DNA of 64,000 nt, taken from NCBI GenBank assembly GCA_041586955.1, contig JBFGZE010000007.1, positions 1-64,000 on the forward strand, read 5' to 3'. Positions 43,128-60,822 of this stretch are shown piece by piece (the first letter of the stretch is position 1; every line of letters starts with the position of its first letter). Source of the stretch: Bacteriovoracaceae bacterium (GTDB lineage Bacteria > Bdellovibrionota > Bacteriovoracia > Bacteriovoracales > Bacteriovoracaceae). A model generated the notes under the pieces. It was not told the origin of the DNA, made no database searches, and worked only from the letters and a program-made list of their open reading frames with translations. The translations under genes and the position numbers were made by a program.

Positions 43128-43379
43128 ATGCAAGAAGTGTGTGAATATCCGGCCGAACATTGGGTCGAATTAAAAGGTGATCCTTTTTATCGTGGCCGCA
43201 TTGTTATTTACCCGGTCTCGGAGCGGTTTCATTTGGATGTGGATATCGTCTATAAAGATTCCCCCAAGATTTTCTGTCATATTGGAACTTTTCTTGGCAA
43301 CGAGGATGAGCGTGAAAGTTTATGGCAAGGTATTCGAGAATTAGAAAACTTTATTTATGCGCGTCAAACTTTTGACTAG
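43128..43379 (+). CDS. Small hypothetical protein
   Basis: 83 aa with GGGAGG RBS. Confidence 0.7.
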   Translation: MQEVCEYPAEHWVELKGDPFYRGRIVIYPVSERFHLDVDIVYKDSPKIFCHIGTFLGNEDERESLWQGIRELENFIYARQTFD

Positions 43380-43469
43380 ATGACTGTGGGCGTTAGTCAT
43401 CTTATTGGCACCATTGATTTTAAAACCACGTGAACCATCCACTTCTGGTCCTTTTTGAGATCTCATTTT

Positions 43470-43485
43470 TGGCACGCTCTTTGCT
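43470..43485 (+). promoter_or_regulatory. Sigma-54 (-24/-12) promoter
   Basis: TGGCAC-GCTCT-TTGCT matches the TGGCAC-N5-TTGC(A/T) consensus. Confidence 0.8.
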
Positions 43486-43495
43486 ATATATTTAA

Positions 43496-43585
43496 GTGTG
43501 TGTGGGAGTTCTTGAAAAAAGGATTTTTTCTTAACTCCAAAAATGTCTCTCGTAAAAAGGCCCCGTTTTTAACGGGGCTTTTTTT
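43496..43585 (+). ncRNA. Candidate sigma-54-dependent small RNA (~90 nt)
   Basis: Promoter, internal hairpin GGAGTT..GAAAAAA-GGA-TTTTTTC..AACTCC, then terminator; no substantial ORF. Confidence 0.55.
43554..43585 (+). terminator. Rho-independent terminator (likely bidirectional)
   Basis: aaaaaggccccgtt-ttt-aacggggc-ttttttt. Confidence 0.9.
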
Positions 43586-43652
43586 CGTCTCGGGTTAACG
43601 TTATAGCGAGAATTAACTGTCTCATTAAAATGATTAAACCTTACACCTAGTG

Positions 43653-44357
43653 TTAAATCATTAAGGCCTTATGATGTGCCATAATAAGGTCAATCATTAG
43701 ATCCATTATTTTACCCCGATAAGCATCAAATTTTTGCGCAAGTTTCATCTCGGGAGTCGAGGTATTCTTGTAATCATGAACTTCAAGATAAACGGACCCA
43801 TCTCCCAATACCTCAACTCTAAAGTCGAGATTAAAAATTCGCGCCTTAAGAACTTTTTGATCGGGATTATAAGAAATAACAGAAGATAAAATGGCCTCCT
43901 TATCATCAGTAAGACTTTTTAAAGACTTTGTTAATAATTGCACACTGAGTTTTAGCCACTCTTCACCTGTAACTTCCTTTTCTTCTACCTTAACTTCGAC
44001 TCCAGTAGCGGAAGAGTTGATATAAGAAGTCATATGGTCGAAGGCCATCTGAGTTGAATTATGAATCAGATTAATAATTAATTCCTCAGGGCCTTTTTCT
44101 CCCTTCCCAATAATCCCATGTTTTAATGGATAAAGATCACCGTTTAGTAATTGTATAAACCCTAATTGCGAGTCAGTTGTTCCGATGGCAATTTGTTTAT
44201 TTAATGGACTATTAAGGATGGGGCCAAAGTTTATTTGAGCGATAAAAGCGTAGCGAGAATTGGTTTGAGTATAATGATGAATTTCATCAATCATTTGGTG
44301 GTTATTTATTTTATTAAACGCATTATGTAGTAATTTTTTGAACATTTTTAATCTCAT
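43653..44357 (-). CDS. Hypothetical protein
   Basis: 234-aa ORF, no recognised motif. Confidence 0.65.
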   Translation of the reverse strand: MRLKMFKKLLHNAFNKINNHQMIDEIHHYTQTNSRYAFIAQINFGPILNSPLNKQIAIGTTDSQLGFIQLLNGDLYPLKHGIIGKGEKGPEELIINLIHNSTQMAFDHMTSYINSSATGVEVKVEEKEVTGEEWLKLSVQLLTKSLKSLTDDKEAILSSVISYNPDQKVLKARIFNLDFRVEVLGDGSVYLEVHDYKNTSTPEMKLAQKFDAYRGKIMDLMIDLIMAHHKALMI

Positions 44358-59675: not shown

Positions 59676-59841
59676 CTCTATAGTCATTTCGGCATTAATT
59701 TTTTAAATCATTTGGTAAGGGATTGATTTAACGATCATTTATCGGAAATTATAGTGATCAGAAACTGATTTTGGCGGGTAAATGGCGAATTGAATAAACC
59801 AACAAGTGAACTATTATTTTTGAGTGGGGAGCAAAAAAGAC

Positions 59842-59868
59842 TTTAGAAAACTTTGCCGGTTCCGAAAG
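59842..59868 (+). promoter_or_regulatory. Possible sigma-28 promoter of flagellin
   Basis: TTTA-N15-TCCGAAAG about 120 bp upstream of ATG. Confidence 0.4.
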
Positions 59869-59988
59869 GGTAATTGTCTGCAAGAGTAGGCATTAAAATT
59901 TGATTATGAGAGCAGTATGCTCATTGATCCTCATGGCTAGGGGGTTGAGTTCCAGGGAAGTTGGGACCGATTAGCAAGGAGGATTTAT

Positions 59989-60822
59989 ATGGGTTATAGA
60001 ATTAACACCAACGTCACTTCACTGACAGCACAAAGAACACTAGGCGCAAGTAACAGAGCACAAGAAAGAACGCTTAATAAGCTTTCTTCAGGACAACGAA
60101 TTGTCCGTTCCGCTGATGATGCTGCCGGTTTAGCAATTAGTGAAAAATTGAAAGCTCAGATTCGCTCGTCGAATCAAGCTGAAAGAAATGCAAATGATGG
60201 TATTTCCATGATTCAAACAGCAGAGGGTGGTCTGAATGAAATTTCAAATATCCTTATTCGTTTGCGGGAATTATCAATCCAATCTGCTTCAGACACCGTC
60301 GGTGATTCTGAACGTCAATTCACCGATCTTGAATACCAAAACTTAAAGGAAGAAGTTCAAAGAATTTCTCAGGTTACTGAGTTTAACGGTAAGAAGTTAT
60401 TAAATGGTACTGGCGAAAGGTATGATTTTCAGATTGGGACAAATAATAATGAGTTTGAAGATCGAATTTCTTTTGATGCTCAGAGAGTTAACTCTACAAA
60501 TGAAACTCTAGGAATTGATTCGCTCAATGTTGTGACAAAAGAAGATTCGCAAAATGCCCTTCAGGCACTTGATTCTGCGATCGAGAATATTTCTGGTCAG
60601 CGAGCGGAATTAGGCGCTAAGCAAAATCGTTTGACTTCAACCATTAATAATTTACAAGTATCTTCTGAGAACATGAGTGCTGCGAATTCTCGTATTCGTG
60701 ACACTGATTATGCCTCTGAGACAGCTAAAAATGCGAAGTTAAATATCTTAACTAACGCAGGTACAGCAGTCTTAGCACAATCAAATGCTCAAGGTGGAAA
60801 TGCTCTGAAATTGATTGGGTAA
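59989..60822 (+). CDS. fliC: Flagellin (short, 277 aa)
   Basis: RINTNV, LSSG.RI..ADDAAGLAISE, NANDGISMIQTAEGGL, RAELGA.QNRL, SRIRDTD. Confidence 0.97.
   Translation: MGYRINTNVTSLTAQRTLGASNRAQERTLNKLSSGQRIVRSADDAAGLAISEKLKAQIRSSNQAERNANDGISMIQTAEGGLNEISNILIRLRELSIQSASDTVGDSERQFTDLEYQNLKEEVQRISQVTEFNGKKLLNGTGERYDFQIGTNNNEFEDRISFDAQRVNSTNETLGIDSLNVVTKEDSQNALQALDSAIENISGQRAELGAKQNRLTSTINNLQVSSENMSAANSRIRDTDYASETAKNAKLNILTNAGTAVLAQSNAQGGNALKLIG

Follow-up and report, generated by a model that had tools for sequence, protein, structure and literature searches.

A sigma-54 promoter, a GGA-loop hairpin and a terminator conserved together: a predicted small RNA family of the Bacteriovoracaceae

Whether a gap between two convergent genes holds a gene of its own, and what such a gene would do, is the question raised by one locus in a 64,000-nucleotide (nt) stretch of a Bacteriovoracaceae genome (contig JBFGZE010000007.1; the whole stretch is referred to here as the window). 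An initial annotation, made from the letters of the window, had noted a sigma-54 promoter on the plus strand with no plus-strand gene downstream, a hairpin with GGA in its loop, a single-stranded linker and a strong terminator, and had proposed an undescribed, activator-dependent regulatory small RNA (sRNA) of about 90 nt. All of these elements are present where it had placed them. The unit does sit in a gap between convergent open reading frames (ORFs), at 43128-43379 (+) and 43653-44357 (-), and the sole plus-strand ORF across it is an artefact of 47 amino acids (aa). Comparison across the family makes it nearly certain that the locus represents a real, previously undescribed family, that of a conserved and activator-dependent sRNA gene. 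By the evidence of its sequence, the segment 43496-43585 (+) is a single-copy, free-standing sRNA gene with its own promoter, its own terminator and no ORF.

Taken by itself, the window is not convincing, because near-matches to the promoter are not statistically unusual in it, a terminator is needed by the convergent genes, and GGA hairpins are common. The promoter, TGGCAC-N5-TTGCT (TGGCACgctctTTGCT, 43470-43485, +), is of the consensus form claimed for it, with its -24 GG (43471-43472) and -12 GC (43483-43484) doublets exactly 10 nt apart, and it is the one zero-mismatch match to TGGCAC-N5-TTGC in the 64 kb. When up to one mismatch is allowed, 6 matches are found against 2.56 expected, a number reached in 6 of 100 shuffles. 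It is the conservation of the unit as a whole, with promoter, covarying hairpin, linker and terminator kept together, that argues against chance.

Conservation of the promoter in relatives had been set beforehand as one test of the proposal. A -24/-12 promoter, scored with a looser pattern, precedes 94 of 94 homologous RNAs and stands 10-13 nt (once 15 nt) before the (GU)n run with which the RNA begins. The strict form, TGGCA(C/T)-N5-NTGC(A/T), is found in 81 of 85 unique relatives. The promoter was absent from every pattern used to collect relatives and from the structure model described below, and all 20 of the divergent copies found with that model carry both promoter and terminator. The five spacer letters and the stretch between the -12 element and the start vary freely among relatives, a mark of selection acting on the two promoter elements themselves. 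The four exceptions to the strict form (L025, L028, L040 and L041) belong to a subgroup of genus g20 and keep TTGGCAC intact at -24, with TTGTA or TTGAA at -12; the promoter may be weakened or altered in this one lineage.

The genome that contains the window (3.46 Mb, 39% G+C, 88% complete) encodes rpoN, recognized by a Sigma54_DBD domain at C25:25996-26475 (218 bits), together with ten proteins that have a Sigma54_activat domain. Strict sigma-54 matches were also surveyed genome-wide, and most of the ORFs that follow them, among the 21 loci listed, have signal-peptide-like or lipoprotein-like N-termini. The leaders of several of them include a GGAGAGA-type ribosome-binding site or a GGA hairpin.

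Homologues of the RNA were collected by several routes. A 161-nt query was matched along the promoter, the hairpin and the linker in a further 12 genera of the family. A promoter-free pattern of the RNA, (GU)3G ... AGGA ... UGUCUCUC, matches 143 of 237 family genomes, in 33 of 69 genera, with 1 match for the reversed control. A structure (covariance) model of a 54-nt core, built without the promoter, gives exactly one match each in 107 of the 151 genomes assigned by GTDB to the Bacteriovoracaceae, representing 48 of 69 genera. In a sample of the phylum, the model matches 19 of 23 genomes of the family and 1 of 127 others; this out-of-family match (G033) lies inside a coding region, lacks the promoter and was rejected as false. 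A scan of public genomes with a related pattern returned 107 stretches, and the 80 listed are nearly all labelled Bacteriovorax, Halobacteriovorax, Peredibacter, Bacteriovoracaceae or more broadly within the same lineage. These labels identify the family as the predatory Bacteriovoracaceae. Named cultured carriers include Halobacteriovorax marinus, Halobacteriovorax sp. CON-3 and Peredibacter sp. HCB2-198. Matches in Ottowia and Puniceispirillales from the same scan were set aside for their odd spacing, and the one in Puniceispirillales (L080) has no promoter. Two copies of the sRNA core occur in a single genome, G091 (C1:419900-419957 and C5:41689-41744), the second of them with AAGGAAUUUU in the loop region.

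The limits of the predicted transcript follow from the promoter geometry, the onset of conservation and the terminator. At sigma-54 promoters the start is expected 12 nt beyond the C of the -12 GC, here at G43496, and the U run marks the end, for a predicted RNA of about 90 nt (43496-43585, +). In relatives the predicted RNAs measure 73-105 nt, with a median of 92 nt. The RNA would open with a 5'-terminal (GU)n run (GUGUGUGUG, 43496-43504), of which the repeat number varies in relatives. The hairpin that comes next (43505-43538) is folded into an outer stem, GGAGUU/AACUCC (43505-43510 and 43533-43538), an inner stem, GAAAAAA/UUUUUUC (43514-43520 and 43524-43530), and a GGA loop (43521-43523) that lies inside an invariant A-GGA-U. 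A single-stranded stretch (43539-43553) holding AUGUCUCUC contains the unpaired GUCUCUC (43545-43551), which is preceded by AU in the window. The unit closes with an intrinsic terminator, AAAAAGGCCCCGUU-UUU-AACGGGGCUUUUU plus a U run (43554-43585, both strands), with a 14-bp GC-rich stem at 43554-43584. The stem is flanked by an A run as well as by the U run, which means that the convergent minus-strand gene can be terminated there too. Folding of 43496-43586 gives -29.5 kcal/mol (z = -4.62), with 0 of 200 shuffled sequences as stable, and agrees with the GGA-loop hairpin, single-stranded linker, strong terminator and 90-nt extent that had been drawn by the initial annotation.

Covariation in relatives, one of the checks suggested at the outset, was found in the hairpin: 13 of its 14 stem pairs show compensatory change, with both sides altered, among 94 distinct sequences. 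Paired cells amount to 87.8% of the alignment, as compared to 80.3% when shuffled and 49-73% when slid, and 0 of 500 shuffles reach the observed values, in an alignment that was fitted to the model and thus favours structure somewhat. The terminator stems differ in sequence between genera, and a hairpin followed by a U run was detected after the RNA in 88 of 94 cases by a crude test; the six misses, the window included, are an artefact of that test, which stopped at the T run in the loop.

Several blocks of sequence stay constant in the same 94 sequences. GUGUG at the 5' end is present in 94 of 94, the loop A-G-G-A in 94 of 94 with U next in 92, and GUCUCU in 93-94 of 94, and the U-rich 3' arm is likewise an invariant block. 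These counts are partly by construction, as 75 of the 94 rows were gathered by a pattern that demands (GU)n, AGGA and TGTCTCTC, and it is the 20 rows derived from the model that test the blocks fairly. In these 20 rows, GGA and GUCUC are kept and the letters ahead of GUCUC vary. Two GGA had been claimed for the RNA, and both are present in the window; only the loop GGA is invariant, and the one in the 5' stem arm occurs in about 58 of 94 sequences, replaced elsewhere by GGGG, GAAG or GAGG with matching changes opposite.

A search of Rfam, also suggested at the outset, gave no match at gathering score in the window. The best match below threshold, BTnc231, scores 28.4 bits where 80.4 are needed and aligns confidently over the terminator alone, and CsrB, CsrC, RsmX, RsmY, RsmZ and their relatives are not among the 25 sub-threshold matches at 43300-43700. 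The literature searched held no study of small RNAs in Bacteriovoracaceae (Bacteriovorax, Halobacteriovorax or Peredibacter). The only sRNA study of a related predator that came up there is reportedly one of Bdellovibrio bacteriovorus, which belongs to a different family (PMC3627812). Among sequencing runs, the DNA of the window is listed in four, all of them DNA runs from a single study, and in no RNA run. A chromatin study of another Bacteriovorax strain describes, in part of its text, KAS-seq and ATAC-seq and no new RNA-seq (PMC11789641). With the unit conserved, activator boxes present upstream, no Rfam match and no paper found, the proposal of an undescribed, activator-dependent sRNA of about 90 nt is supported.

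The contrary view is that no independent RNA gene exists here, and that the unit is the leftover leader of a lost gene, a gene for a tiny protein (MSLVKRPRF) or a promoter that arose by chance before a shared terminator. It can appeal to the sigma-54-like match, which is statistically ordinary within the window alone, to a bidirectional terminator that the flanking genes need anyway, and to an AUG ahead of UCUCUC in most copies. Such an account is highly improbable, since the whole unit is kept across 48 genera in varied contexts and always in single copy, and the promoter, boxes and hairpin are under selection. The supposed peptide would, moreover, run into the variable terminator, and the 9-codon ORF was rejected as a candidate once copies found with the model were seen to have ACG, AAG or UAG in place of its AUG.

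The region upstream of the promoter holds two palindromic boxes, recovered by a scan of the genome for boxes and promoters and not noted in the initial annotation. The distal box (GTCAAACTTTTGAC, 43363-43376, +) is a perfect GTCA-N6-TGAC palindrome, and the proximal box (GTCATCTTATTGGC, 43396-43409, +), which begins 33 nt after the start of the distal one, agrees at 7 of 8 specified bases. The boxes lie roughly 75-110 nt upstream of the -24 element and about three helical turns apart, and in the window the distal one overlaps the final codons of the upstream ORF. They were first spotted by eye in aligned upstream DNA and then counted in 113 unique upstream regions of 115 nt. A perfect box is present in 71 of the 113, and a box with at most one mismatch in 92; where paired boxes fall within the 115-nt span, their start-to-start distance is 31-33 nt in 27 of 27 cases. 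Many of the relatives' boxes read GTCAAATTAGTGAC or GTCATTTTAATGAC.

The combination of boxes and promoter is also specific to this locus. The window's genome contains 47 perfect boxes in its 3.46 Mb, and the sRNA locus is the only one where a strict sigma-54 match has a box in the 200 nt upstream of it, as well as the only one to combine paired boxes with a promoter. Of 237 family genomes, 93 contain the pattern of box plus promoter, in almost every case as a single match at the sRNA locus; the reversed control gives 1 match. The consensus for IHF is WATCAANNNNTTR, and a match to it is seen between boxes and promoter at many loci, for example AATCAGCTACTTA and TATCAAGTACTTA, in an uncounted survey. 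As read from its sequence, the layout is the standard one for a promoter that fires only once an enhancer-binding ATPase has received its signal. In genus g20, loci such as L019, L029 and L032 have a conserved CTTA-N7-TAAG palindrome directly after the proximal box, for example GACTTAGCAAATGTAAG; this may be the site of a second regulator or a genus-level leftover.

The gene for the activator was sought by proximity and by phylogenetic profile. No activator gene adjoins the RNA in 42 loci examined with 1.5-kb flanks, and none of the ten activators of the window's genome scores above a curated NCBIfam cut-off. For the profile, activators L151-L158, eight of the ten (L151-L160), were compared to five genomes without the RNA; orthologues of an activator share 71-75% identity and paralogues at most 52%. 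Orthologues of L151, L152 and L153 are present in 3-5 of the five RNA-negative genomes, and L156, L157 and L158 have only full-length matches of 34-41% there. L154 and L155 are absent from all five and were rejected nonetheless, given that they occur sporadically across the family (15 and 14 of 151 genomes) and cannot serve an RNA present in 107 of 151. The profile test is itself weakened because two of the five "negative" genomes carry a variant RNA behind the same promoter.

These variant RNAs bear on what the sRNA might do. Four genera, g67 (4 genomes), g71 (2), g2 (1) and g79 (1), lack the sRNA, as judged by the pattern and, where it was run, by the structure model, and have two boxes and a sigma-54 promoter (loci L189, L190 and L206 in g67, L191 and L192 in g71, L193 in g2 and L195 in g79). 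Behind this same promoter lies a terminated RNA of about 95-115 nt without (GU)n or GUCUCUC. It has instead two hairpins, each with an A-rich arm, an NGGA loop and a U-rich arm, and further GGA, up to 5-6 in g71; the variants of g67, g71 and g2 have 3-6 GGA per 95-115 nt, with the GGA features computed for five of the eight RNAs and read by eye for three. A genome of g51 (L194) holds an intermediate form with (GU)3 and one hairpin and without GUCUCUC. What is constant across the sRNA and its variants is, therefore, the regulatory region and the GGA-loop hairpin, which favours a decoy of the global regulator CsrA.

A minimal CsrA decoy is accordingly the mechanism favoured from the comparison of these sequences, and it is given about an even chance of being right. 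In this model, an activator switched on by a signal would cause the RNA to accumulate, and the GGA-loop hairpin would bind CsrA, with a second GGA at the foot of the 5' stem arm in about 60% of sequences. CsrA would then be drawn off messenger RNAs in which a similar site occurs, a flagellin leader of the window's genome among them. The RNA would thus be a minimal Csr/Rsm-like decoy under sigma-54 control, in which (GU)n and GUCUCUC might have a second role in stability, processing or added base pairing. The initial annotation had offered either a CsrA sponge or a base-pairing RNA; the comparison leans toward CsrA, and the invariant GUCUCUC and (GU)n make base pairing its main rival. A GGA-loop hairpin is a known recognition element of CsrA, according to part of one report (PMC13443453). 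CsrA was found in 141 of the family's 151 genomes, or 108 of 110 when those of good quality alone are counted, and Hfq was detected in 0 of 61 family genomes, each at least 97% complete.

Candidate targets can be pointed to in flagellin genes, of which the window's genome has five clear examples and a sixth, weak match. One flagellin leader (contig C72, 14299-14374, -) folds into a hairpin of 10 bp that has GGA as its loop and lies 17 nt ahead of the GGA-containing Shine-Dalgarno (SD) sequence AAGGAGGAU. The same two-site layout of GGA-loop hairpin and SD is described for the hag leader of Bacillus subtilis in that report (PMC13443453). The sRNA hairpin of a g7 genome (L203) contains the 13-nt core, GAGAAGGAUUCUC, of the C72 flagellin hairpin. 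Another flagellin gene lies within the window itself at about 59800-60411 (+), with its start near 59989 and a leader that contains CAGGGAAG and AAGGAGGAU. Genus g4 has a second locus (L187, L188, L205 and L208, for example L208 1161-1379) at which box and sigma-54 promoter lead to a gene for a 72-aa lipoprotein, in 6 of 6 genomes. The leader of this gene has a GGA-loop hairpin, GUGAUCACGGAUUGAUCAC, and the ribosome-binding site CAGGGAAG, and by its sequence it looks like a CsrA-controlled leader; no homologue of the lipoprotein was found in the window's genome.

A number of observations weigh against CsrA as the partner. One GGA alone, that of the loop, is invariant in the sRNA, and known Csr/Rsm decoys carry 5-22 GGA. 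GGA-loop hairpins with purine-rich arms are common in so AT-rich a genome, with 137 matches, and a genome-wide scan for them was discarded for being too unspecific. Binding of CsrA leaves the invariance of (GU)n and GUCUCUC unexplained. Profiling of L151-L158 singled out no candidate activator, and no synteny was found between the variant RNA loci and the sRNA locus, so that the equivalence of the variants rests on the promoter alone. Moreover, fliW lies beside csrA in most family genomes (with adjacent coordinates in, for example, G003 and G160), and FliW is present in 99 of 101; the known antagonist of CsrA in that setting is a protein. We know of no RNA decoy of CsrA in lineages that carry FliW. 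The contrast between sRNA antagonists of CsrA in gamma-proteobacteria and FliW in B. subtilis is drawn in the abstract of one preprint (10.1101/2020.07.02.184341). The window's genome itself has two csrA copies, of 58 and 61 aa, on C139 (L164 1480-1656, -) and C128 (L165 1498-1683, +), and fliW was undetected in it, an absence made uncertain by its 88% completeness; relatives have one csrA with fliW adjacent.

An alternative is that the RNA acts by base pairing, with GUCUCUC and perhaps (GU)n pairing to GAGAGAC or GGAGAGA ribosome-binding regions or to (AC)n tracts, so as to block or open translation, and with the GGA hairpin as a structural or stability element. This is possible, at a distinctly lower probability than the CsrA decoy. 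GUCUCU (93-94 of 94) and GUGUG (94 of 94) are both unpaired in the fold, although their invariance is in part built in by a pattern that demanded TGTCTCTC for 75 of the 94 rows. In the window's genome, ribosome-binding sites of such a kind (GGAGAGAC or GGAGAGAGA) stand before several genes that follow sigma-54 promoters, C26:22145-22516 being one; GAGAGAC itself, however, shows no enrichment in that genome, where it is found 269 times and 30 permutations of its letters average 380, and no 5' region there combines (AC)n with GAGAGAC. The most suggestive locus is in G127 of genus g16 (L200; L207 1180-1925), where box and sigma-54 promoter precede a leader with CACACACACAACACACACA and GGAGAGAGAC right before the AUG, complementary to both (GU)n and GUCUCUC of the sRNA. 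The gene concerned, though, encodes an accessory HNH-like membrane protein of 189 aa with no homologue in the window's genome. That Hfq was found in none of the 61 genomes also speaks against pairing, as do the variant RNAs of g67, g71, g2 and g79, which lack both elements and keep the GGA hairpins. If the RNA does pair with messenger RNAs, regulation would here proceed without Hfq and through an unusually simple seed.

A further alternative holds that the RNA binds or titrates some other protein, such as an RNA-binding protein or ribonuclease, or that it acts in cis, working through (GU)n and GUCUCUC with the GGA loop as one of several contacts. Three separate sequence blocks are invariant where the stems are variable, which fits recognition by a factor that reads sequence, and no known family matches. 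This reading is unlikely, all the same: no candidate partner gene stands beside the RNA in the 42 loci, and it makes no specific prediction. The genomic context of the sRNA varies among relatives, which argues for action in trans and against a role in cis.

To return to the CsrA decoy, a fuller scenario may be sketched, with considerable doubt. A lineage that keeps FliW, the ancestral protein antagonist of CsrA, would have evolved, independently of the gamma-proteobacteria, a sigma-54-driven RNA decoy with a dedicated activator; in some genera a two-hairpin version behind the same promoter would have taken its place, and the one-hairpin form would be dual-function, with a pairing seed. If true, CsrA in predatory bacteria would integrate flagellar assembly, through FliW, with an external or life-cycle signal, through the sRNA. 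Should the RNA bind CsrA, RNA decoys and FliW can coexist, and the sRNA would be a signal-dependent switch tied to motility or predation. The locus is a complete regulatory module: two activator sites come first, then a sigma-54 promoter, an RNA of 90 nt in which three blocks are invariant, and finally a terminator. The module occurs once per genome in most of the family and, whichever partner the RNA has, offers a handle on a sigma-54 activator for which this RNA is the only evident target.

The genes around the unit are of other kinds. The flanking ORFs encode 83 aa (+, ending at 43379) and 234 aa (-, ending at 43653), neither with a Pfam match, and farther away are a YceI-like gene and an arginase-family (HutG-like) gene. 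The 83-aa ORF at 43128-43379 (+) and its relatives form a cluster (c1) of 80-100 aa without a Pfam or NCBIfam match. In 15 of 42 loci, an ORF of this cluster is the immediate upstream neighbour of the sRNA and shares its strand, and it often follows a RimK-like gene.

In comparison to known systems, the layout is, on the evidence of sequence, that of a sigma-54 sRNA of the Qrr, GlmY or CrcZ kind, and the probable action resembles that of the Csr/Rsm decoys; the RNA is a member of none of these groups. The boxes themselves recall FleQ of Pseudomonas aeruginosa, with an identical GTCA-N6-TGAC architecture. A passage of one study gives GTCaNTAAAtTGAC as the FleQ consensus proposed for P. aeruginosa and describes the motif as poorly predictive even in Pseudomonas (PMC6120874). 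The likeness stops at the box, as no FleQ N-terminal domain is found among the ten activators (Pfam, E <= 0.001), and no gene other than the sRNA, hence no flagellar gene, has box and promoter in the window's genome.

The Qrr RNAs of Vibrio, driven by sigma-54 and LuxO, are likewise small, at about 100 nt, and have both a sigma-54 promoter that is conserved and activator sites peculiar to their genes, and in both systems the activator regulon seems to be little more than the sRNA. There is no similarity to Qrr in sequence or in Rfam. Qrr RNAs act by Hfq-dependent base pairing, in contrast to a family in which Hfq was not detected, and the activator gene is not adjacent here. The LuxO site, TTGCA-N3-TGCAA, is also unlike the GTCA-N6-TGAC boxes. 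GlmY/GlmZ (sigma-54 with GlrR) and CrcZ/CrcY (sigma-54 with CbrB) are sRNAs that sequester a protein (RapZ and Hfq/Crc, respectively) rather than pair, and such sigma-54-driven titration of a protein is the logic proposed here. GlrR boxes, TGTC-N10-GACA, use GTC/GAC half-sites as well, with a different spacing. The RNA architecture and proposed partner differ from those of GlmY/GlmZ and CrcZ/CrcY, and there is no Rfam match to them.

The Csr/Rsm decoys of gamma-proteobacteria (CsrB, CsrC, RsmX, RsmY and RsmZ) are likewise short, trans-acting, terminator-ended RNAs with GGA in hairpin loops, and their promoters, too, are dedicated and respond to a signal, with a palindromic site for the activator upstream. 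The GGA density of RsmX, RsmY and RsmZ is similar to that of the variant RNAs of g67, g71 and g2. No Rfam model of the group matches the sRNA, and where five or more GGA are characteristic of the group, the window RNA has two, one of them invariant. The sRNA differs further by its additional invariant (GU)n and GUCUCUC and by a host lineage that pairs CsrA with FliW. Csr/Rsm decoys are transcribed from sigma-70 promoters with a GacA/UvrY box, unlike the sigma-54 promoter and GTCA-N6-TGAC boxes found here. A likeness is also seen to flagellin leaders of the B. subtilis hag type, which are CsrA targets and likewise hold a GGA-loop hairpin between complementary A/U-rich arms. In the sRNA, by contrast, the hairpin is followed by neither SD nor start codon and the transcript stops at a terminator, so that the RNA would be a decoy for CsrA rather than a target of it.

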